From: Deltaproteobacteria bacterium | GTDB lineage: Bacteria; Bacillota; Clostridia; Acetivibrionales; UBA4821 | Reading direction: 5' to 3' | DNA: 64,000 nt | NCBI GenBank assembly: GCA_050258375.1 | Contig: JBLMYQ010000002.1 | Span: forward strand, 29,543 to 93,542 | In this document: positions 7,958-63,806 of the stretch, piece after piece | How positions within the stretch are numbered: position 1 is the stretch's first letter | Layout: each line of letters begins with the position of its first letter | Notes under the pieces: generated by a model | The model's database searches: none | What the model was told of the DNA's origin: nothing | What the model saw: the letters and a program-made list of their open reading frames with translations, nothing else | Position numbers and translations under genes: made by a program

Positions 7958-9355
7958 TTAATCAGTGTAACCTTCTTCTATATTATCGGTTTCGAACCTT
8001 ATAACGTCATCCTCTTCAAGATATAGTCCATTTTGAACCTCTATAATCTCCAAATCAACCTTCCCGGGATTTTCAAGCATATGCCTTACTGCCTTGGGTA
8101 TAAATATGCTTTCATTCTCACTAATAAATCTTTCTTTTTCGCCCATGATTATCTTTGCAGTTCCCTTAGTAACTATCCAATGCTCACTTCTATGGTAATG
8201 CAGCTGCATGAGGATTTTCTGTCCCGGGTAAAGCGTTATCTTTTTTACTTTATATCCTGCACCTCCTGCAATGACTCTATGATTACCCCAATGTTTATAT
8301 GAAGTTGTATGTTCAACAGCCTCTTTTCTTTCCGATATTTTAAGTCTTTCTACAACCTCTTTGACCTTTTGCGATTCACCTTTTTTTGATACAAGGATGA
8401 CATCATCAGTTTCCACAACAATCATATCCTCAAGCCCTATCCCTACAACCAGTCTATCCGCTCCTATTATCAGGGAATCAGAACAATCTATGGTCATACA
8501 GTCTCCATTTTTAACATTCTTATTTTCATCTTTTTGCATCGCATCATAAATAGCATCCCATGAACCTATATCATTCCAATATGAACTAATAGGTATGGTT
8601 ACAACTCTTCTGGACTTTTCGGCAATTGCATAATCGATAGATATCGAGGGCATATCCTCAAATTTCTGAACAATCTCTTGATAAGAATTTTCCATAAACA
8701 GGTCATATATTTCTGGTTGATATAAGGCTAGTTCCTCTAAAAATGTATTAATAGAAAAGGCATACATACCTGAATTCCAATAATAATTCCCGCTTGTTAC
8801 ATATTGTTCAGCCCTCACCAAATCCGGCTTTTCAACAAATTCATCAACATTGTGCCCATATTCCCATGGAAGCCCTACCTTTATGTAGCCATACCCTGTT
8901 TCAGGCTTATTGGGTCTGACTCCTATTGTTACGATTTTATTTTTTTCAGTGCCTTTAATTACTGTTCTTACATCATTTACGAACAGATTCTTGGGCATAA
9001 TAATATGATCAGATGGAGAAATAAAAAGTATTTCGTTTGTGTCTCCGGCCAGGTTATCAAGAATATACTTTGCTGCAAGAACTATTGCAGGCGTGGTATT
9101 TTTCGCAAAAGGCTCAAGAAGGACGTGGGCATTTTCTATATTACATTCTTTTATTTCAGCCTTAACATGATAATAGTACTCTTTATTTGTTACAACAATA
9201 ATATCCTTGGGTTCTACAATATCAAGATATCTATTAAAGGTTTGCCCTAAAAGGGTTTTATCTGAACCTATTTTTAAGAATTGCTTCGGGAAACTTGTTC
9301 GTGATAAAGGAAACAGCCTGCTCCCTCCACCACCTGCAAGTATGATTACTTTCAT
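7958..9355 (-). CDS. manC: mannose-1-phosphate guanylyltransferase / mannose-6-phosphate isomerase (type II PMI, bifunctional)
   Basis: N-terminal ILAGGGGSRLFPLS nucleotidyltransferase motif, C-terminal cupin HYHRSEHWIV; true start ATG 9355 (MKVIILAGG) preceded by GGAGG; the upstream 22 codons of the track ORF are leader. Confidence 0.85.
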   Translation of the reverse strand: MKVIILAGGGGSRLFPLSRTSFPKQFLKIGSDKTLLGQTFNRYLDIVEPKDIIVVTNKEYYYHVKAEIKECNIENAHVLLEPFAKNTTPAIVLAAKYILDNLAGDTNEILFISPSDHIIMPKNLFVNDVRTVIKGTEKNKIVTIGVRPNKPETGYGYIKVGLPWEYGHNVDEFVEKPDLVRAEQYVTSGNYYWNSGMYAFSINTFLEELALYQPEIYDLFMENSYQEIVQKFEDMPSISIDYAIAEKSRRVVTIPISSYWNDIGSWDAIYDAMQKDENKNVKNGDCMTIDCSDSLIIGADRLVVGIGLEDMIVVETDDVILVSKKGESQKVKEVVERLKISERKEAVEHTTSYKHWGNHRVIAGGAGYKVKKITLYPGQKILMQLHYHRSEHWIVTKGTAKIIMGEKERFISENESIFIPKAVRHMLENPGKVDLEIIEVQNGLYLEEDDVIRFETDNIEEGYTD

Positions 9356-14432: not shown

Positions 14433-14518
14433 TGTAAAAATTATTAAACTTCCTTTTTCAAGCTCTTTCAGTCTTGTTATTATAAGTCACCCCTTGTATA
14501 GCTTAAAGTGTAAGCTCC

Positions 14519-25094: not shown

Positions 25095-25262
25095 CACCGA
25101 AAAGGATTTCCAGCACTGTTTCATCCACTCAGATATCCTGGCTCAGGTTCATTCTTCTCCTTCCCTTCCCGGTTCAATCCAGTGGGTATCTAAGGAGTCG
25201 TCACCATTACAGTAGCGGGGGCTGCGACGGATTCTAACCGTCTTTCCTGAAAAGCGTGGACA
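25095..25262 (-). promoter_or_regulatory. cobalamin (AdoCbl) riboswitch
   Basis: Minus-strand sequence GGTTAGAATCCGTCGCAGCCCCCGCTACTGTAATGGTGACGACTCC...ACCCACTGG...GGGAAGGGAAGG matches B12-element core (GGTnAnAATCC, GCnGnCCCGC..CTGTAA, B12 box CCACTG, GGGAAGG). Confidence 0.8.
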
Positions 25263-29028: not shown

Positions 29029-29115
29029 CTCACCCCTACCCTAATGACCCTTAAGGATTACTGTGTTCTTCCTTCGCCTTGTTAAGGGAGAAGGAAGTAA
29101 GAGAGATGAGGGTAT
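29027..29115. repeat. TAACTCACCCCTACCC... element with CTTCCTTC/GAAGGAAG hairpin and GATGAGGGTATT unit after murA
   Basis: shares 5' 12-mer with 21501 and 52645(rc); GATGAGGGTATT also at ~33716. Confidence 0.45.
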
Positions 29116-29149
29116 TCTGTTTACAATAATTTAATTTGGAGATATACAA

Positions 29150-33329: not shown

Positions 33330-33599
33330 TAAAAAATCACCTCTACAATATTTTACCATTTATAAAATTATTGGTCAAGCAAGTGAAACTCCTTATCTGC
33401 ATATTTTGCGGGCGCAATATATGGTAAAAAAGACCCTCCTTTCCTCCCTTCAAAAGGGAGCGAAAAGTAACTCTATGTAGAAAATTCAATACAAACCTCA
33501 TTTATGCTTTTGCAAACATCTTCAAAATTATAAATTACATCTTAATTTCTAAATTCGACTATAAAATACAGGCTTTTCGTCCCCCAATTTATTAAAGAC

Positions 33600-33760
33600 T
33601 TTACCTTGTTTGTTCCCTTCTCCCTAAAAATCTCCAAAGAACTTTCTTTTCCTTCCCTCGCCTGATTTCGGGAAAGGGAAGATAGATGGGTGAGGGCTAT
33701 AGGGAGAAGGGGCAGGGATGAGGGTATTGAAGGGGAGATAGAGGGGTCTTAAACTAATTG
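33600..33760. repeat. long imperfect palindrome: CT-rich arm (TTCCCTTCTCCCT...CCTTCCCTCGCC) vs GA-rich arm (GGGAAAGGGAAG...TAGGGAGAAGGGGCAGGGATGAGGGTATTGAAGGGGAGATAGAGGGG)
   Basis: arms complementary (CCCTTCTCCCTA / TAGGGAGAAGGG); related G-rich units to the TAACTCACCCC family; sits in divergent promoter region. Confidence 0.4.
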
Positions 33761-33870
33761 AATTTACTCTATCACGTATATTATTTCTTAATACTATTAT
33801 ACTCTTTAAATGAATATTGATATATAATGTATTGTCTGCTAAAATCGCAATTAAGAAAGGAAGGTGGATT

Positions 33871-40002: not shown

Positions 40003-40040
40003 GTGTAAAATGTAAACTTTAAACTAATTAGCTTTACACT
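40003..40040. repeat. GTGTAAA-heptamer inverted element (pilD-ilvD intergenic)
   Basis: GTGTAAAATGTAAACTTTAAAC...GCTTTACAC. Confidence 0.5.
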
Positions 40041-41697
40041 ATTTTATAACCGCACCTGTACTTGCCGAGCTTACCAATCTCGCATATTTTGCCATATACC
40101 CCTTTTTTATCTTAGGTTCCGGCTTGGTCCATCTTTTACGTCTGTTTTCCAGCTCTTCGATAGATACTTCTAAATCAATTTTATTATTGCTTATATCAAT
40201 ATTTATGATGTCGCCTTCCTGAACAAGTCCAATAGTCCCTCCTTCAGCTGCCTCCGGCGATATATGACCAATTGAAGCCCCTCTTGTAGCACCTGAGAAA
40301 CGACCATCAGTTATAAGCGCAACCTCCTTATCCAATCCCATTCCTGCAATTGCAGATGTTGGCGCAAGCATTTCCCTCATTCCGGGACCACCCTTAGGTC
40401 CTTCATAGCGAATAACTATTACATCGCCTTTGTTGATTTTCCCTCCCATTATAGCTGTATAGGCTTCCTCTTCAGAGTTAAATACACGTGCAGGTCCTTT
40501 GTGCTGAAGCATTTCAGGAGCAACCGCCGCTCTTTTTACAACAGCACCGTCCGGTGCAAGGTTTCCCCTTAAAATCGCTATGCCTCCAGTTTCACTATAT
40601 GGAGCTTCTATATTGCGGATTACCTCATTATTAATTACTTTAGCATCCTTGATATTTTCACCTACAGTTTTTCCCGTAGCAGTCATCAAATTAAGATTCA
40701 ACAAGTTTTTCTTTGCCAGCTCATTCATAACAGCCTGAACTCCACCGGCTTCATATAAATCCTGAACATGATGTACTCCTGAAGGTGCAAGCTTGCAAAG
40801 ATTAGGAGTACTCATACTTATTTCATTTATTATATCAAGATTTATTTCAATTTCTGCATCATTTGCTATTGCAGGCAGATGAAGAACCGAATTAGTAGAG
40901 CATCCCAATGCCATATCAACAGTAAGCGCATTTTTAAAAGCTTCCGGTGTCATTATAGCCCTAGGTCTAATATCTTTTTCAACCAGCTCCATTACTTTCA
41001 TGCCGGCATATTTTGCAAGTCTTATTCTTTCAGCATAAACCGCCGGAACTGTTCCGTTACCAGACAATGCCATTCCCAGTGCTTCACTCAGGCAATTCAT
41101 TGAGTTTGCAGTGAACATACCTGAACACGAACCGCATCCAGGACATGCATAATCTTCGTACTCGCAAACATCTTTTTCATCCATTTTGCCGGCTTTAACA
41201 GCTCCCACTGCTTCAAACACAGAATTAAGGTCAAGATATTTTCCGTTTCTTTTTATTGAAAGCATTGGCCCACCGCTAATAACAATTGATGGAATATTTA
41301 ATCTTGCAGCTGCCATAAGCATTCCAGGAATAATTTTGTCACAGTTTGGGACAAAAACCAAGCCATCAAAAGCATGCGCTACAGCCATACATTCTATAGA
41401 ATCTGCAATAATTTCCCTTGTTGCGAGGGAATATTTCATTCCCTCATGTCCCATTGCTATTCCATCACATACACCAATTACACCAAATTCAGCAGGTGTT
41501 CCTCCAGCCAATCTGATTCCTGCTTTTACTGCCTCAACTATTGTATCAAGATGAATATGTCCTGGAATTATTTCATTTTTTGAATTCACAATACCGATTA
41601 TCGGTCTTTGAATCTCCTCATCGGTATATCCCATAGCTTTAAACAACGAACGATGAGGCGCTCTATCCAAGCCTTTTTTGACCTTATCACTTATCAT
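40039..41697 (-). CDS. ilvD: dihydroxy-acid dehydratase
   Basis: IlvD/EDD family motifs (CDGIAMG..., [16 protein letters not shown]), 552 aa. Confidence 0.9.
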
Positions 41698-41952
41698 CCT
41701 TTAACTCCTTCCGAAATTATATTTATAATTGACATTTACAATGTACAATTATAGAGTAACTATGCTATTAATTATTAACCTTAATAAAATGCAAAATAAT
41801 TTATGAGCAAAATTTTTTGACCCAATTGGAATACATCTAAGTCAAAATGTTCGTGAATAGCTTCTTTGGAAGAGTCCTCAGAATAGTTTGGCGTTGCTAT
41901 CAAAATTTTGTAAGGAAATTATTTTGCATTTATAATGATTTATAATAAGTAA

Positions 41953-42785: not shown

Positions 42786-43280
42786 ATGGCAAAAACAATA
42801 GTAGGTGTTTTTGAATATCACAAGGATGCAGAAAAGGCAGCTAGAAAAGTCAAGGAGGAAGGACTTAAGACCTCAGACATATCAATAATCACAAGACAAG
42901 GCTCAGACAATGATTATAACGACAATACCACGGGGCAGGATTATACCATGAAAAATGATAATATTTCAGACGGAGTGGTAACAGGAGGCGTTCTCGGAGG
43001 ACTTGCAGGGCTTCTTATAGGTGCTGGCACAATGGTCATTCCAGGTATAGGAATAATTGCAGCTGCAGGACCGATAACAGGCTTGATTTCAGGTGCTATT
43101 ACAGGTGGAATAGTAGGAGGTCTTGTAGATTTGGGAATACCTGAAGATGAAAGCAGAGAATATGAAAATGATGTAAAAGAAGGAAAAGTTGTATGGAGCA
43201 TGCGAACCGATTCTTCATATGTTGATAAAATAAAATCAATTTTAATAGATTGCGGTGCATACGACATCCAAGCTTATTAA
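42786..43280 (+). CDS. general stress protein 17M (YflT/DUF1269)-like with glycine-zipper C-terminal half
   Basis: N-terminal VGVFEYHKDAEKAARKVKEEGLKTSDISII pattern; GxxxG-rich hydrophobic segment. Confidence 0.5.
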   Translation: MAKTIVGVFEYHKDAEKAARKVKEEGLKTSDISIITRQGSDNDYNDNTTGQDYTMKNDNISDGVVTGGVLGGLAGLLIGAGTMVIPGIGIIAAAGPITGLISGAITGGIVGGLVDLGIPEDESREYENDVKEGKVVWSMRTDSSYVDKIKSILIDCGAYDIQAY

Positions 43281-43299: not shown

Positions 43300-43800
43300 A
43301 TTATTTTCCCTCGGATATAATACTGTTTAAGGGACAGAATAATATCACAAGGGTTCATAGTGGTTGAGCCAAGAGTAACTCAGGGTCTGCTGGGCTCTGT
43401 TTTATTCGGTCAAAGGTCTGTATTCGGTCTACGTGGCTGTTTACCGGCCGGCGAGCAGAGCATTATGTGTCTCCCAAGGCTTTGTATATGCAGCATTTGC
43501 TGTGTATGCCAGGTCGAAAGGGATGTATAATGTTCGAGCTAAGATTGTCGTTAGTTCCGCAGGTTAATTTTGCTGTAGCCCTGCATAACCGTTTGGTTAT
43601 GGCTAACTCAGATTAACTGGAGGTTTTTTGCAGCCGGCTTGCCGGTTGCACTTAGCTTCTAAGGTATTCTCGACAGTCGAGTAAAGGTTGATATGGGTTT
43701 TGATATGCTCTTATACAGCCGGAAGGTTGTATGGGGGTATGAAGAGATTCATATTGGCTGTAGCGTAGATCACTATGGGCTCTTATTTAATTTTTGCTTC
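43300..43800. other. GC-rich (~50% vs ~35% background) ORF-free structured element of unknown identity
   Basis: No ORF >=60 aa in any frame; many short perfect hairpins (CATAACC-GTTT-GGTTATG; GCAGCCGGC/GCCGGTTGC; CTCGA-CAG-TCGAG); no match to tmRNA, RNase P, 6S, group I/II intron cores. Confidence 0.4.
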
Positions 43801-43956: not shown

Positions 43957-44214
43957 TTGACAGAAAAAATAAAAGCTTTAGAAGAACAATTAACTCAATC
44001 TGAAAATAGCAATAAACAGCTAAGACATGAGTTGACGCAATCTGAGATTACTAATAAGCAGCTAAGCAATGAGTTGTCACAATCTGAAAACACCAATAAG
44101 CAATTAGTGGATGAAAATGCAGAATTACATACTCTTTCAGAAAAGGATGGTCTTACTAATCTTTGTAACAAGAAAAACTTTGAAATCTCTTTAAATAAAA
44201 AAATAGCAAGGTAG
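43957..44214 (+). pseudogene. remnant of coiled-coil + GGDEF (diguanylate cyclase) gene, truncated after DGLTNLCNKKNFEISL
   Basis: TTG-initiated 85-aa ORF with 11-aa repeats (ELTQSEITNKQL) ending in the first GGDEF motif (DxLTxLxNRR-like) then stop; downstream frames are fragmentary. Confidence 0.4.
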
Positions 44215-44421
44215 AATGCCTTGAGGATAGAAATTTGATAAAAAGCTTTGAAGGAAAAATCGAAGAACAAATCTCTCCTTATATACGGGATACTGCAGAT
44301 AAAAAATCACTTTATTGCGCAAAAAATAAAGAAGGCAAGGGTACAGTAGTAGCAATCAACGGAGATTTATCATCGTTTTGTAATACTCTTAATCCTGACC
44401 ACACCGGAAGATAATAAATTT

Positions 44422-52540: not shown

Positions 52541-52596
52541 AAAGTCCTCCGAAAAGATTTAGTTCAATGTGCTGCTAAGTAAAATCTTGATAACCC

Positions 52597-52660
52597 CTCT
52601 CTTGATAACCCCTCTTTTGAAAAGAGAGGGGCAGGGGTGAGTTACACTTTACACTAAAAC
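52597..52660. repeat. composite: CCCCTCTTTTGAAAAGAGAGGGG hairpin + GGGGCAGGGGTGAGTTA repeat + TTACACTTTACAC heptamers (recR-ybaB intergenic)
   Basis: same units as at 21501..21545 and 29027..29045 (rc) and as the heptamer arrays. Confidence 0.55.
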
Positions 52661-56981: not shown

Positions 56982-57266
56982 TTATCAAAATAATATGGCT
57001 GTGCACCTTTCTTCGACATGCTTCATACAAGCGGCACTCATACTGTTAGCTCAAATCAAGTACCCTCGCGGCACACAAGAGTGACCACTTACCGCTGCTT
57101 TCTTCCGAATCTGACGGGGTTCATAGTTTCCTGTTGCGCAAGACCTGACTCTCATCACCACTTTTTATGCTCCAAACCCTACACGAAACAGCCTTCAAAA
57201 GGAATTAAGCCCTGCTATAGCGGATTGCAGGTACAAGGCACCGCTACCTCCCCGCCTAGCACAGCC
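56982..57266 (-). ncRNA. ffs: signal recognition particle RNA, long (Bacillus-type, with Alu domain)
   Basis: Minus strand GGCTGTGCTAGGCGGGGAGGTAGCGGTGCCTTGTACCTGCAATCCGC... and domain IV GTCAGATTCGGAAGAAAGCAGCGGTAAG closely match B. subtilis scRNA; 5'/3' ends pair (GGCTGTGC/GCACAGCC); followed by hairpin GGCAGAGCGATGGATGATTGCTCTGCC. Confidence 0.85.
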
Positions 57267-57330: not shown

Positions 57331-57813
57331 TTATTTCCCACACTCCGAATCTATTCTTTTAAATATTCTTTCCAATAATTCCTTTATTTCCTCGATACAT
57401 TTCCTGTAAGTCTCAATCGGCATTCCATAAGGGTCAGACACATCTTTTTCTGCAAGCTGTTCTTGATTTTCTCCCAAGTATGAGTATTCATATATTGAGA
57501 AAACCTTATCGCCAAACTGAGGAAACTGTGCAATTATATTCTTTTTCTGAAGTCTTGTCATGCAAAGCACTATATCTGCTGCATCAAGCATATGCTCAAC
57601 CAATCTCCTGGCGCGGTGGTTTCCCATTTTCATACCACTCTCTTTAAGAACCTCAACTGCACTATAGCTCGGTGGCTCTCCCTCCCAAGCAGCTATACCG
57701 GCTGAAGAAACACCAATATTATTTATATCCTTTGAAGCAAGAATCTTCTTAAATATTGCTTCAGCCATAAAGCTTCTGCATGTATTTCCTGTACAAACAA
57801 AAAGTATATTCAT
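57331..57813 (-). CDS. low-molecular-weight protein tyrosine/arginine phosphatase (YwlE-like)
   Basis: P-loop VCTGNTCRS (C-X5-R), 160 aa, adjacent to tsaC as in Bacillus ywlC-ywlE. Confidence 0.85.
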   Translation of the reverse strand: MNILFVCTGNTCRSFMAEAIFKKILASKDINNIGVSSAGIAAWEGEPPSYSAVEVLKESGMKMGNHRARRLVEHMLDAADIVLCMTRLQKKNIIAQFPQFGDKVFSIYEYSYLGENQEQLAEKDVSDPYGMPIETYRKCIEEIKELLERIFKRIDSECGK

Positions 57814-57830
57814 ACGCCACCCCTTTATTA

Positions 57831-57966
57831 GTGTAAAATGTAAAGTGTAGAGTTACCTTACAAAACAGAAACCCATACCTACGCATTCAATATCCAAAAC
57901 ACAATGGACATTTTAGGGCTTGAATTAAAGGTTTAAACTTTACATTTTACATTTTAAACTTTACAC
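57831..57966. repeat. inverted arrays of GTGTAAA heptamers flanking a ~80-bp spacer (ywlE-tsaC intergenic)
   Basis: left GTGTAAAATGTAAAGTGTAGAG; right GTTTAAACTTTACATTTTACATTTTAAACTTTACAC (rc matches left). Confidence 0.6.
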
Positions 57967-57971
57967 TTCTT

Positions 57972-59036
57972 TTAGTCTGCCCTAATAACATTATACCCTG
58001 CGGCTCTTATCATGCGATTCATTATAGCCATACCTATCCCATTTTTTTCGATAGCCTCCATGAAAACTATATCAACCTTTTCTTCATCAAATTTTCTAAG
58101 CAGCCTAAAAAGATTTGCAGCTATTGTTTCCGGATTATCTCTATCTCCGGCCGAGAAAACCAAGCCGGTATTATACAACTTCTTTGTTTGCTCTGTTGCC
58201 ATGATTCCAACCCTTTTCCCTTGATTTAAAAATGCTTTGGCTCTGGACTCTATTTCTTTTACGATTTTATCAATTGAGCCATCAACTAAAATCACTTCCG
58301 CTTCCGGCGAATAATGTTTATATTTTACGCCAGGACTTCTTGGAATTTCTACGCTTTCTTCCATCTTTATATTTATGTGCCTATCTGTGTCAACTCTTCC
58401 TGTTACCTCTTTAATCTGCTCAAATGTAACTGCCCCGGGTCTTAGTATTATCGGAACCTCTCCAGAAATATCAAGAACAGTAGATTCCAAGCCAACCCTA
58501 CAGTCTCCGCCATCAATAATAACATCAACCCTTCCATCCAAATCCTTTAAAACATGGCTTGCAGAAGTAGGACTTGGGGAACCCGAAATATTAGCACTTG
58601 GAGCTGCAACAGGAACATCAGCAAATTTTAAAAGCTGGAGTGCAATATTATTGTCAGGCATTCTGATTCCCACAGTATCAAGCCCTGCCGTAACAATCTC
58701 AGAAACAGCTTTTGATTTTTTTACTACCAAAGTAAGCGGCCCGGGCCAAAATTTTTCTGCTAAAGGCTTAAGCATTACGGGTATTTCAGATGCAACCTCC
58801 TCAATCTGCTTAATATTCCAGATGTGAACAATCAAAGGATTATCTGCTGGTCTTCCTTTAGCAATAAAGATTTTTTCAACAGCTTTTTCATCCAGAGCAT
58901 TCGCACCCAAGCCATAAACCGTTTCAGTCGGAAAAACTACAGTGCCTCCGGCTTTTAATGTCTGTGCTGATATTTCTATATTTTTAATATCTTTTTCAAT
59001 ATTTTGTATCTTAAAAGTTTTGGTCAATTTCTTCAC
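57972..59036 (-). CDS. tsaC: L-threonylcarbamoyladenylate synthase (Sua5/YwlC type with C-terminal Sua5 domain); start GTG 59036 or TTG 59027
   Basis: YrdC domain GGTVVFPTETVYGLG..., 354 aa. Confidence 0.85.
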   Translation of the reverse strand: MKKLTKTFKIQNIEKDIKNIEISAQTLKAGGTVVFPTETVYGLGANALDEKAVEKIFIAKGRPADNPLIVHIWNIKQIEEVASEIPVMLKPLAEKFWPGPLTLVVKKSKAVSEIVTAGLDTVGIRMPDNNIALQLLKFADVPVAAPSANISGSPSPTSASHVLKDLDGRVDVIIDGGDCRVGLESTVLDISGEVPIILRPGAVTFEQIKEVTGRVDTDRHINIKMEESVEIPRSPGVKYKHYSPEAEVILVDGSIDKIVKEIESRAKAFLNQGKRVGIMATEQTKKLYNTGLVFSAGDRDNPETIAANLFRLLRKFDEEKVDIVFMEAIEKNGIGMAIMNRMIRAAGYNVIRAD

Positions 59037-61545: not shown

Positions 61546-62610
61546 CTATTCATCTGAGCCTTGCCTTAATCTCTCACTTCTATCATTCGTTATTAGTGCA
61601 TCAATCATCTCATCTACCTCGCCATTAACAAATGCTTCCAGCTTGTAAAGTGTAAGACCGATTCGGTGGTCTGAAACCCTTCCTTGAGGAAAATTGTATG
61701 TCCTAATTCTTTCACTTCTATCTCCTGTTCCTACCTGACTTTTTCTTGCCTGTGCAAGCTTGGCATTTTCTTCTTCCAGCATTTTTTCATAAACCCTTGC
61801 CCTGAGAATTCTCATTCCCTTATCCTTATTTTTTAACTGGGATTTCTCATCCTGGCATGAAACAACTATGCCTGTAGGTATGTGGGTTATTCTCACAGCA
61901 GAATCCGTAGTATTTACGCACTGTCCTCCGGGTCCTCCTGCTCTGAATACATCTATCCTCAAATCGTTTTGGCTTATCTCCACTTCGACCTCTTCAGCTT
62001 CAGGCAAAACCGCAACCGTAACCGTGGAAGTATGTATCCTTCCGCTCGCCTCAGTCTCAGGAACTCTCTGCACTCTGTGCACACCACTTTCAAATTTCAA
62101 TCTGCTGTAAGCACCTTTCCCTTCAATCATGAATATTACTTCCTTAAATCCTCCCAAGCCTGTAGGATTTGAGCTCATTATTTCTGTTTTCCACCTGTTA
62201 GCTTCAGCATAGCGGCAGTACATTCTAAACAGAACTCCTGCAAACAAAGCAGCTTCATCTCCGCCTGCTCCACCTCGAATTTCTACAATAACGTTTTTAT
62301 CATCATTAGGGTCTTTAGGAAGAAGAAGGAATTTAAGCTCCTCTTCAATTTTCTGAATCTTTTCCTGAGCTTCGTCCAACTCCATTTGCGCAAGCTCTTT
62401 CATATCCTTATCTTGCAAAAGTTCCTGTGCATCTTTTATATCTTTTGATACTTTTTTGTATTCTCTGAACTTTTGAACAATATCTTCAATTTCAGCGTGT
62501 TCTTTCATTAATTTTCTCCACTCATCCTGATCTGCAATTACATCAGGATCACTGAGCTTAGTATTTATTTCTTCATATTTCTTTTCAACAAATTCTAGTT
62601 TTGAAAACAT
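61546..62610 (-). CDS. prfA: peptide chain release factor 1
   Basis: GGQ motif [23 protein letters not shown], PxT-type RF1 region, 354 aa, no frameshift site. Confidence 0.9.
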
Positions 62611-62630
62611 TTCATATACCCCTTTTGTTA

Positions 62631-62791
62631 GTTTAAAGTTTAAAGTGTAAAAGATAAAGTTAACTTCAAACTCTCTCCCTAAAAATTATTTATTATTTAA
62701 AAATATATATAGAAGAAATATCTATTCATGCATTTTGTTCAAGTCTTTATGTTATTTAAAACTTTACACCTTACACTTTACACTGTCTACA
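62631..62791. repeat. inverted arrays of GT(G/T)TAAA heptamers flanking ~95-bp spacer (prfA-hypE intergenic)
   Basis: left GTTTAAAGTTTAAAGTGTAAAAGATAAAG; right CTTTACACCTTACACTTTACACTGTCTACAC. Confidence 0.6.
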
Positions 62792-62795
62792 CTTG

Positions 62796-63806
62796 TCAGC
62801 ATATTCTCGGCAGAGGTTCGCCTGACAATACATCAAGAATTCTGCCTCCACTTCCAACAGTTTTTAATATTACCATAGGTTCATCTGTATTGTCTACTAC
62901 TCTCCCAATAATCGCTGATTCATTTCCATATTTATGCTTTTCCATAATACCCAGAAGCCTTTGCGCTTTTTCCTCTTCGACAAAAACAACTATTGTTCCT
63001 TCATTTGCAAGATAAAGAGGGTCAAGCCCCATCAAGCCGCAAACTCCCTTAACATCTTCTCTAACAGGAATTTTTTCCTCTAATATTTCAATTTTTACTC
63101 CGGATTGTAATGCTATTTCATTTAATACAGCAGCGAGACCTCCTCTGGTTGCATCCCTCATAACACAAATCTCAGGAACAGCCTCAAGCATATTTTTAAT
63201 AAGATTATTCAAAGGTGCTGCATCGCTTTTTACAAAAGTCTTGAATCCGAATTCTTCACGTGATGTGATAATAGAAGCCCCATGACTTCCAATTGAGCCG
63301 CTGACTATAATAACATCCCCAGGCTTTGCCATTCCTCCTCCGGTTTCAATTCCTTCAGGTACTATTCCAACTCCCGATGTATTAATGAAAATTCCGTCTG
63401 CACTGCCTTTTTCAACAACCTTCGTATCTCCGGCAGCAATTATTATGCTGGCTTCTTCAGCTGTTATTGTCATAGATTTTATTATTTTTTCCAGTTTTTC
63501 AATCTCAAATCCCTCTTCAATTATAAATGAAGCAGTTAATGCAGCCGGATTAGCTCCCATCACAGCCAAATCATTTACCGTTCCTGAAACAGCGAGCTTG
63601 CCTATATCTCCACCTTCAAAGAAAATTGGCTTTACAACAAAGGAGTCTGTAGTAAAAGCAAGCTTTGTACCCTTCAGCTCAATAATACCTGCATCATTCA
63701 TTTTATCAAGAACAGGATTAGAAAAGTATTTTTGGAACAAATTTTTTATGAGGTCCCGTGACATTCCGCCTCCGCTTCCATGTCCCATTTTTATTATATT
63801 ATTCAT
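62796..63806 (-). CDS. hypE: AIR-synthase-related protein, HypE-like (C-terminal PRIC)
   Basis: N-terminal MGHGSGGGMS..., PurM-like fold, C-terminal ...EPLPRIC as in carbamoyl-dehydratase HypE; ATG 63806 after AAAGGAG. Confidence 0.6.
   Translation of the reverse strand: MNNIIKMGHGSGGGMSRDLIKNLFQKYFSNPVLDKMNDAGIIELKGTKLAFTTDSFVVKPIFFEGGDIGKLAVSGTVNDLAVMGANPAALTASFIIEEGFEIEKLEKIIKSMTITAEEASIIIAAGDTKVVEKGSADGIFINTSGVGIVPEGIETGGGMAKPGDVIIVSGSIGSHGASIITSREEFGFKTFVKSDAAPLNNLIKNMLEAVPEICVMRDATRGGLAAVLNEIALQSGVKIEILEEKIPVREDVKGVCGLMGLDPLYLANEGTIVVFVEEEKAQRLLGIMEKHKYGNESAIIGRVVDNTDEPMVILKTVGSGGRILDVLSGEPLPRIC

Follow-up and report, generated by a model that had tools for sequence, protein, structure and literature searches.

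The heptamer arrays and their gene context

The window analysed here is a stretch of 64,000 nucleotides (nt) from a metagenome-assembled genome (MAG; contig JBLMYQ010000002.1, positions 29,543 to 93,542 of the forward strand), in which short gaps between genes carry tandem arrays of degenerate heptamers of the form GTGTAAA or its complement TTTACAC. It has a G+C content of 35% and an intergenic share of 10.9%; gene identities were taken from translations and Pfam matches, and gene boundaries from open reading frame (ORF) calls. The gene content, which includes SpoIIR, proteins with SLH domains, a large Firmicutes-type signal recognition particle (SRP) RNA (56999-57264) and an IlvD with 79% identity to that of Acetivibrio clariflavus, identifies the host as an uncultured Clostridia lineage near Acetivibrio, and the NCBI label of the source MAG, ‘Deltaproteobacteria bacterium’, is therefore probably a taxonomic mislabel. 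The sample comprised five array loci in this one window (elements E1 to E5, all on the minus strand, the sense strand of every gene flanking an array) together with about 160 kb of sequence from relatives. The elements range in size from 38 to 160 base pairs (bp), and the unit registers and the ‘outer junctions’ of the arrays were partly set by eye.

Two of the five elements consist of a pair of inverted arms. E1 lies between sua5/tsaC and a low-molecular-weight phosphatase gene, and its 5' arm (57932..57966), detected by the array scan and given 5.3 copies by Tandem Repeats Finder (TRF), reads GTGTAAA GTTTAAA ATGTAAA ATGTAAA GTTTAAA and starts 5 nt (AAGAA) past the sua5/tsaC stop codon TAA (57972-57974). 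A partly self-pairing spacer of 80 nt (57852..57931), which shows no kinship to the spacer of E2, leads to the 3' arm (57831..57851; TCTACAC TTTACAT TTTACAC), and this is followed by 7 nt (TAATAAA), the ribosome-binding site (RBS) GGGGTGG and the ATG (57811-57813) of the phosphatase gene. E2 occupies the gap between hypE and prfA: its 5' arm (62755..62792; GTGTAGAC A GTGTAAA GTGTAAG GTGTAAA GTTTTAAA) starts 3 nt (CAA) past the hypE stop codon TGA (62796-62798), its spacer of ~90 nt (62665..62754) is very AT-rich, and its 3' arm (62631..62664; GTTAAC TTTATCT TTTACAC TTTAAAC TTTAAAC) is followed by TAACAAAA, GGGG and the ATG of prfA (62608-62610), with the prfA RBS AAAAGGGG ~7 nt downstream of the arm.

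The other three elements are smaller. E3 (40003..40041) is a compact 38-nt form that reads TAG, then TGTAAAG CTAATTAG TTTAAAG TTTACAT TTTACAC, its first unit overlapping the ilvD stop codon TAG. E4 (52641..52656; TAG, then TGTAAA GTGTAAC) is a two-unit 5' arm whose first unit overlaps the TAG stop codon of ybaB and which is followed by a G-rich hairpin repeat of another family. E5 (14495..14512; (C)TTACAC TTTAAGC) is a weak 3' arm followed by TATACAAGGGGTGA (AAGGGGTGA downstream), a context like that of the 3' flanks of E1 and E2. Both of these latter elements (52641-52656 and 14495-14512) are single two-unit arms that lack a partner.

An earlier, model-made annotation of this DNA (the first-pass annotation) had listed the heptamer arrays at these loci, and the sequences are present at all of the coordinates that it cited. 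Its statement that one arm overlaps or abuts the upstream stop codon needs sharpening at E3 (40003-40041) and E4 (52641-52656), where the stop codon TAG itself begins the outermost unit (TAGTGTAAAG), and its placing of the other arm directly 5' of the next RBS does not hold for the element at 40003, the inner arm of which is 40 nt from the RBS. All of the 5'-arm units of the window elements contain TAA; as 7 is not a multiple of 3, three such units place a stop codon in all reading frames.

Non-random arrangement of the arrays

The array scan accepted runs of two or more tandem units, each with at most one mismatch from GTGTAAA, and was calibrated with 200 second-order Markov shuffles. It returned seven runs in the window against 0.35 expected (~20-fold) and four runs of three or more units against none in any shuffle. 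Lone GTGTAAA or TTTACAC heptamers were not enriched (15 against ~14 on a rough estimate from base composition), so the signal lies in the tandem arrangement. TRF independently reported period-7 arrays of 5.3 copies at 57932-57968, of 3.1 copies at 62630-62651 and of 4.6 copies at 62761-62794, with a unit-to-unit match of 82–93% within arrays. Global lag-7 autocorrelation of the intergenic DNA gave no signal; the arrays are a local feature.

The suggested bias of the arrays to intergenic gaps was confirmed, six of the seven runs falling within intergenic DNA, which makes up 10.9% of the window (binomial P = 1e-5); the seventh, a two-unit run inside prfA (61643-61656), is probably due to chance. 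All five loci lie in gaps between co-directional minus-strand genes, as the same annotation had noted, which taken alone is only suggestive (P = 0.02-0.06). The best-conserved unit is the outermost one: on our own reading of the window and its relatives, GTGTAAA stands at 8 of the 10 ends of the GTGTAAA-array family (F1). Arrays that begin at a stop codon do so at a TAG (4 of 4 independent loci), a codon that accounts for 24.5% of the stops in the window.

Pairing between arms

A repeat finder identified inverted arms at 57830-57854 and 57936-57960 (25 nt, 88% complementary, 81 nt apart) and at 62630-62651 and 62763-62784 (22 nt, 86% complementary, 111 nt apart). The inverted arms described in the first-pass annotation are thus real at both loci, while the spacer of 80-95 bp given for them has to be corrected to 80 and 111 nt between the strict heptamer runs. 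Each of the two elements can pair in more than one register, and the minimum-energy folds of both pair arm to arm and leave the Shine-Dalgarno sequence outside the stem. The arm duplex of E1 was calculated at -18.3 kcal/mol (z = -4.7 against shuffled arms) and that of E2 at -22.1 kcal/mol (z = -3.4); the corresponding values for two relatives, L003 and L216, were z = -7.1 and z = -2.9, and the presence of partner arrays was significant at all four (z = 4.9-8.3). In E1 a TTTACAT in the 3' arm is matched by an ATGTAAA in the 5' arm, where elsewhere TTTACAC is matched by GTGTAAA, a compensatory change. These folds and z-scores lend support to the earlier proposal that long A-U-rich stems would form between the arms inside apparent polycistronic transcripts. 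Three elements of the window are predicted to fold better as sense than as antisense RNA, by 7.0, 8.9 and 1.4 kcal/mol.

Neither an intrinsic terminator nor a U-tract was found at E1 or E2, where the A-U-rich stems are followed by TAAnAAAGGGG, and the suggestion that the arrays act as intercistronic attenuators is accordingly not borne out, as both elements lack a U-tract or terminator-like site. No convincing sigma-70-like promoter was found in E1 or E2, the stretches between the arms included.

Gain and loss of arrays at operon junctions

The relatives used for comparison are syntenic contigs, referred to as L001, L003, L214, L216, L218, L219, L220, L129, L131 and L133, of which L001 is the nearest (Sua5 80% identical). 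Junctions that are filled in the window are gaps of 3-90 nt in the relatives or hold a different small element there: the sua5–phosphatase gap, 158 nt in the window, measures ~3 nt in L003 and ~10-30 nt in L129, L131 and L133; the hypE–prfA gap measures 185 nt in the window and 36 nt in L133; and the ybaB–recR gap measures 113 nt in the window and 18-87 nt in L129, L131 and L133. The genes of the nadB–nadC and nadA–nadB pairs overlap or nearly touch in some genomes and are separated by array pairs in others. In L001 no GTGTAAA arrays are present at the sua5–phosphatase or hypE–prfA junctions, the former carrying a G-rich hairpin element instead, while TAGTGTAAAGTGTGAAG, orthologous to E4, is retained after ybaB. 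Compared with L214, E3 represents a clean ~36-nt indel, and its right-hand junction (CATTTTACAC followed by TG) is shared with a degenerate element of ~190 nt at the same site in L218. Judged from these orthologous sites, the arrays are derived, lineage-specific insertions that have been gained, lost and remodelled at operon junctions, and not conserved regulatory elements of sua5, prfA or recR.

Short-read assemblies of three different genomes end exactly inside heptamer arrays (the end of contig L004, at window position 57938, the start of L218 and the end of L220), which indicates that assembly graphs break at the arrays owing to their repetition or variability. The one other contig from the window's own organism stops within the E1 arm. 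Contig pairs taken from separate samples and compared for unit-number polymorphism were 99.98–100% identical.

A second dispersed family, unrelated to the GTGTAAA arrays, was observed at similar positions. It is a G-rich hairpin of the form CTCACCCC(T/C)RNCCC(C)TCTC-loop-GAGRGGGG, located in the window at 52586-52640, 29029-29120 and ~33400-33780, and in relatives in the sua5–phosphatase gap of L001, the ilvD–pilD gap of L216 and the EPSP–lactamase_B gap of L218. It uses niches from stop codon to RBS in both orientations, and in one of these the GGGGTGAG end serves as the Shine-Dalgarno sequence too; the copy at 52585-52620 includes a 15-nt tandem repeat.

Different heptamers in the same layout

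Arrays built from other heptamers take up the same position in the relatives, the first array beginning at or just past the stop codon and the inverted one ending just before the RBS. Between the EPSP synthase and lactamase_B genes of L216 the order is TAG TTGGTAG TTGGTGG TTAGTAG TTCGTAG, ~45 nt, GAACTAACAACTACGAACCTAAC, AGAAAGGAA and ATG, with the 3' array of CTACGAA type lying directly before the RBS. The ybaB–recR junction of L003 reads TAG TTTACGG TTGACAG TGTACAG, ~110 nt, TTAACTG TCAACTG TAATCTG TAAACTT and GTGGAGGG; the nadA–nadB junction of L220 has five TTAGCTG units, ~30 nt, five units of CCAACAG type and GGGGG; and the ilvD leader of L219 has four GCTGGTA units, 23 nt and three TAGCCAA units. 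At the nadB–nadC junction of L214 the end of nadB, TAG stop codon included, is formed by an overlapping TAGTYCC array, with a partner of AGGAACA type, and arrays of ATTCTGA type occur in L001 (5534-5564) and L218. Another possible array, degenerate and of period 7, lies in the ilvD leader of the window (41721..41750, minus strand; ATTGTAC ATTGTAA ATGTCAA TTATAAA), and the orthologous site of L214 reads TTAACTG TAAATTG TTAACTG TAAACTA just 5' of the RBS. At least six different heptamers were counted among close relatives, with up to four in one species (L001/L214), and on this comparison GTGTAAA is one of several heptamer families that share one layout in related genomes.

The period itself is specific. 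The intergenic gaps of the six closest loci contained 13 period-7 arrays against 1.3 +/- 1.0 in shuffles (~10-fold), and periods 5, 6, 8 and 9 were at background in the same gaps. The density of period-7 arrays was 6.3 per 100 kb in eleven clade loci versus 0.8 in the negative control, 1 Mb of unrelated metagenome loci (contigs of distant Sua5 homologues). No such arrays were found in 46 kb of the more distant L129, L131 and L133, while L219 and L220 have them.

Two candidates for a feature common to the families were rejected. The pattern (RGTK-N3) with three or more repeats was observed six times against 0.6 expected in the closest loci, but as a common core it fits four families and fails for TTAGCTG, ATTCTGA and AGAAGAC, and its occurrence may simply follow from arrays beginning at a TAG stop codon. 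Palindromic cores similar to restriction sites (a hexamer in 3 of 8 families) gave an estimated P of ~0.04 and were judged too weak.

Heptamer hairpins in viral contigs

A loose pattern scan for the GTGTAAA unit, the other matches of which were mostly due to chance, found a viral contig (IMGVR_UViG_3300032038_000176; loci L100 and L109) with a G+C content of 63% and at least three long, two-tier heptamer hairpins. Their order is (GTGTAAA/ATGTAAA)n, (GTGCTTG)n, loop, (GCACCAA)n and (TTTACAY)n; hairpins or arrays lie at 1291-1433 and 2307-2400 of L100 and at 8165-8313, 9251-9336 and 10372-10562 of L109. One hairpin reaches from a TGA stop codon as far as AAAGGAGGTG and ATG. Unit numbers differ between copies, one of which has a 14-nt expansion, and the same 19.5 kb hold two further arrays of GCACCAA/TTGTGCC type. 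None of 10 proteins flanking the hairpins had a Pfam match. The contig shows the layout in a genome without relation to the clade, and there convergent and divergent gaps carry it too. As the contig was found by searching for GTGTAAA, the common heptamer is no evidence of a common factor.

A second viral scan, with a 17-mer common to E1 and L100, returned only coding or operator-like matches in AT-rich phages. Inverted GTGTAAAC/CTGTAAAC arrays around very AT-rich stretches were observed in the AT-rich viral contigs L110, L016, L022, L073 and L107; lying beside a conserved gene of ~750 amino acids (aa), they resemble the iterons of a phage replication origin.

Searches for known elements

No Rfam match was obtained at the arrays at E <= 5 over the window, and searches with the element alone at E <= 10 gave noise only. 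BLAST of E1 returned one chance match inside a coding gene among plasmids and no match among phages, and a scan of species-representative genomes for two 3'-arm units with TAA and GGGGT gave four chance matches. An exact-protein look-up with PrfA gave no match. Among known classes of site, integron attC was rejected since the core sites RYYYAAC/GTTRRRY are absent and the neighbours are housekeeping genes in conserved order. Iterons or a replication origin were rejected in view of a GC skew that is negative in every 4-kb bin, with a cumulative skew that falls steadily and does not switch, and of array neighbours (hypE, prfA, sua5) none of which is a replication gene. An omega-type operator was rejected because the heptad is not WATCACW, the arrays are 80-111 bp apart and a promoter was not found. 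WalR/PhoP and LytTR boxes were dropped for wrong spacing, and the CtsR heptad, Fur-family 7-1-7 sites, boxA, PUF sites and anticodon-loop mimicry as fitting poorly or being untestable.

Interpretation

The reading that we favour, with roughly even confidence, is that the arrays are lineage-specific small palindromic intergenic repeats resembling REP dimers or REPINs, with arms made of degenerate tandem (GTGTAAA)n and its complement. The REP-like repeat family suggested in the first-pass annotation is supported, in the form of a dispersed intergenic one; its other suggestions, of processing or stability elements and of protein-binding sites, may hold. The occurrence of one unit at these five loci, with the outermost unit best conserved, points to copying between loci or to a shared constraint. 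Since the unit varies by locus and by relative, while period 7 and the layout stay constant and the elements come and go, fast-evolving hairpin repeats fit better than a site for one sequence-specific regulator.

Under this reading, insertions would have arisen in the short interval that separates a stop codon from the following Shine-Dalgarno sequence, since probably no other site in a tight operon can take up an insertion at so little cost; an unrelated G-rich palindrome at the same junctions in other lineages is to be expected if this interval is the only tolerated niche. The arms would then lengthen and shorten in steps of 7 nt with complementarity kept. Lying inside transcription units, the elements would presumably be transcribed and fold arm to arm, the spacer looping out and the upstream stop codon being brought near the downstream RBS. 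The likely results would be cleavage by RNase III or 3'-end protection of the operon mRNA, with translational coupling retained. By analogy with Correia elements and hmw1A, a polycistronic transcript with a long A-U-rich stem of ~20-25 bp (as much as ~55 bp in the relatives and in the virus) would probably offer RNase III a substrate. A selfish or neutral origin of the elements is plausible.

Several observations weigh against this reading. The sample is small, as given above; no transposase, RAYT or other mobilising gene was found in the window or in the loci of the relatives; and the whole-element fold of E2 is no better than that of shuffled sequences (z = 0.22). Across the clade, sense and antisense folding were each favoured four times, an inconsistent signature of selection on RNA. 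Moreover, alignment of the E1 and E2 spacers was no better than that of shuffles (z = -1.6 and 0.6), which agrees with the earlier statement that the spacers differ and the elements are not simple copies of a MITE (miniature inverted-repeat transposable element), but unrelated spacers are also unlike those of recently copied MITEs or REPINs.

Were the arrays DNA sites for a heptad-reading protein, such as a nucleoid-associated protein or global regulator that bridges two inverted arrays, their three to five units, exact 7-bp period and use of both orientations would find a parallel in the operators of the ribbon-helix-helix omega repressor of plasmid pSM19035, which coats 7-bp heptads WATCACW in either orientation. 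The several families with an RGTK-N3 core, the excess of the pattern with three or more repeats (6 versus 0.6) and the iteron-like inverted GTGTAAAC arrays beside the ~750-aa gene of AT-rich phage contigs point the same way, as do the MTYCTGA pairs of Geobacter metallireducens, which have the same layout and were read as regulator sites (PMC2700814). We nevertheless regard this explanation as unlikely, as a promoter-like site was found neither in nor between the arms, the arrays lie inside operons of housekeeping genes, and at least six heptamers in close relatives, TTAGCTG and ATTCTGA among them without RGTK, are hard to square with one protein. No gene for a ribbon-helix-helix protein, a HutP-like protein or another candidate binder was found in the window, and the strong orientation bias of the Beggiatoaceae TAACTGA repeats relative to the downstream gene (PMC4679880) argues for a strand-specific, RNA-level or transcription-linked feature. 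In a further alternative the arrays are single-stranded RNA sites for a translational or post-transcriptional factor, be it ribosomal protein S1, a cold-shock protein whose site measures 6-7 nt or a ring protein like HutP that recognises a short core every 7 nt: a G-poor array before the Shine-Dalgarno sequence would enhance or gate initiation, and the array after the stop codon would mask it until the terminating ribosome melts the base of the stem. It would explain the constant polarity in the window and its relatives, with a stop-bearing array (AGTGTAA, TAGTTGG, TAGTYCC) after the stop codon and its complement 0-10 nt before the RBS, a polarity that single arrays keep as well. The E2 3' arm contains TTAACTTTA, which is identical to the ‘epsilon’ enhancer of phage T7 gene 10, and some arrays of L216 and L214 are exactly UAG-N4 repeats, the format of the HutP site. 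The Beggiatoaceae repeats, mostly forward near the start codon and with S1, Csp and CsrA proposed as binders (PMC4679880), add to its case. Against this stand heptamers that vary by locus with no core common to all families, a Shine-Dalgarno sequence that is not within the stem, elements that appear and vanish among close relatives with no visible consequence, and the lack of an identified candidate protein; the polarity, too, could reflect what is tolerated beside the end of an ORF. We consider this explanation rather unlikely.

That the arrays are the terminal inverted repeats of IS630/Tc1-mariner-type MITEs, which duplicate a TA target and are mobilised by a transposase encoded elsewhere, we hold to be quite improbable, even though terminal inverted repeats are present, the terminal unit is GTGTAAA at 8 of 10 F1 ends, and on our own reading the outer dinucleotide is TA at 6 of 10 and ends in A at 10 of 10. 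Both L216 junctions are TA, E3 differs from L214 by a clean ~36-nt indel, and the size (38-160 bp), intergenic site and hairpin potential would all suit a MITE. The interiors, however, differ between copies, the 5' sides of E1 and E2 lack TA, the ‘TA’ may belong to the repeat unit or to the TAG stop codon, each heptamer family would need its own transposase, and about 290 kb of sequence from the clade showed no transposase. Chance, or the base composition of AT-rich intergenic DNA, would account for lone GTGTAAA heptamers at their predicted frequency in DNA of 35% G+C, but as a source of the arrays it is refuted by the shuffles (seven runs versus 0.35, and four of at least three units versus none). 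The enrichment at period 7 only, the complementarity of the arms (z = -3 to -7) and the recurrence of the layout both in relatives and on a viral contig with 63% G+C leave it next to no probability.

If the arrays are only selfish or neutral, they represent the ordinary repeat biology of an uncultured lineage. Their value lies in the comparison of filled and empty orthologous sites in close relatives, where arrays have been gained and lost at operon junctions, and in the finding that different heptamers build one hairpin from stop codon to RBS, which points to a structure or a 7-nt-step process and not to one sequence-specific binder. Should the hairpins be processed or affect coupling, they would offer a cheap, fast-evolving means of retuning protein ratios within an operon. 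As the arrays break short-read assemblies, they also matter for the quality of MAGs.

Other features of the window

Three further features of the window lie apart from the arrays. A non-coding region of ~460 nt on the plus strand (43332-43795), just 3' of a yflT-like gene (42786-43280), has a G+C content of 45% against a background of 35%, with nucleotide identities of 91.5% in L214, 85.6% in L216 and ~74% in L219 and L220. RNAalifold of five sequences predicted 163 base pairs, 26 of them with compensatory double changes, and a long-range closing helix, and no Rfam 15 match was obtained even at E <= 10; the region is a candidate for a new large structured RNA, which may outrank the heptamer arrays in interest. 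A 42-nt tandem repeat (43996-44102; 2.5 copies, 80% identity) falls inside or beside a 91-aa ORF (43995-44270) without a Pfam match, and a cobalamin riboswitch (25131-25248, minus strand) lies upstream of an operon encoding an ECF/CbiQ-type transporter and proteins with DUF4430 and SLH domains.

Comparison with known systems

A transcribed heptamer array in a hairpin is known from Haemophilus influenzae hmw1A, where (ATCTTTC)n forms one arm of a 5'-UTR (untranslated region) hairpin that is cleaved by RNase III with a change in expression, and where a change in unit number requires the hairpin as well as RNase III (PMC12721329). The window arrays resemble it as presumably transcribed arrays that form arms of a long hairpin. 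They differ from it in that hmw1A is a single phase-variable locus with at least 10 perfect units and a G-rich partner, and not a dispersed family. The Correia, RUP and ERIC MITEs have terminal inverted repeats, lie beside genes and are co-transcribed, and the Correia hairpin is cleaved by RNase III, which alters mRNA stability. Like these MITEs (100-160 bp), the window elements have terminal inverted repeats and lie next to genes; unlike them, they have no interior common to the copies, and the terminal repeats of MITEs are not tandem heptamers.

With REP dimers, BIMEs and REPINs the elements share an extragenic and locally dense distribution, inverted dimers with poorly conserved linkers, hairpin formation and predicted co-transcription. 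In GTAG-REPs the terminal TAG is often the stop codon of the flanking gene, and dimers are 20-100 bp apart (Di Nocera et al. 2013, PMC3733652). The REP unit, however, is itself a palindrome of 20-40 bp, whereas the arms here are tandem direct repeats that pair with each other over 80-111 nt. The outer junctions here are TAGTG or AAGTG, compared with the conserved GTAG or CGTC tag at one end of REPs, and GTAG occurs only inside the TTGGTAG arrays of L216 and L219.

The closest counterpart in layout is found in G. metallireducens, in which multicopy ‘predicted global regulator binding sites’ occur mostly as opposite-strand pairs at variable distance (Aklujkar et al. 2009, PMC2700814). Class 1 consists of four GTTGCTYN units, class 2 of three TCTCCGTS(Y) units and class 3 of five MTYCTGA heptamers; the eight pairs of class 3 have site A 3' of gene n and site B 5' of gene n+1, 70-115 bp apart, with site B reaching the RBS (PMC2700814, file S9, Table S4). 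The paired sites are species-specific, being absent from G. sulfurreducens, and binding of IHF or HU was suggested by the authors without a test (PMC2700814). The window arms, with 3-5 heptamer units (7-9-nt units in G. metallireducens), are likewise arranged as opposite-strand pairs (80 and 111 nt apart, with two window loci single-armed) that span the interval from the 3' end of one gene to the RBS of the next co-directional gene. They differ in host, which is Clostridia-like, and in unit, which is GTGTAAA and not MTYCTGA, the class 3 unit being seen, in arrays of ATTCTGA type, only in the relatives L001 and L218. Some class 1 sites have an insertion sequence (IS) inserted at a fixed distance (PMC2700814); nothing similar was seen here.

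In marine Beggiatoaceae 169 sets of TAACTGA repeats, found also in some Cyanobacteria and Bacteroidetes, lie mostly in forward orientation a few nt 5' of start codons, with some overlapping ORF ends; as direct repeats they are close to perfect and lack an inverted partner, save for a single inverted case in 170 sets, and S1, Csp or CsrA were proposed as binders (MacGregor 2015, PMC4679880). The window arrays resemble TAACTGA and STRR repeats in having 2-6 tandem heptamers, the same unit at several, nearly all intergenic loci (five in 64 kb of the window), a fixed orientation just 5' of a start codon or overlapping the end of the upstream ORF, and units with stop codons, three of which close every reading frame; the TTAACTG/TAAACTG arrays of L003 and L214 are almost the Beggiatoaceae unit. 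Unlike TAACTGA and STRR repeats, the window units are degenerate (82–93% match) and mostly in inverted pairs, and whereas TAACTGA sets usually replace the Shine-Dalgarno sequence, the window arrays precede a normal one.

Cyanobacterial STRR heptamers were reportedly described by Mazel et al. in 1990. To our knowledge, no mechanism or function has been established for the dispersed heptamer repeats of cyanobacteria (1990), Geobacter (2009) or Beggiatoaceae (2015). The GTGTAAA family and its clade are new, while the kind of element was already on record and had never been explained. A broader and rather doubtful possibility is that inverted heptamer arrays linking a stop codon to an RBS form one widespread class defined by layout, occurring in the Clostridia clade, Geobacter, Beggiatoaceae, cyanobacteria and some viruses, made or kept by a dedicated mechanism and setting coupling or mRNA processing between cistrons. 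Such a mechanism may be a protein or ribonucleoprotein acting in 7-nt steps, or a hairpin- and RNase III-dependent expansion of repeats.

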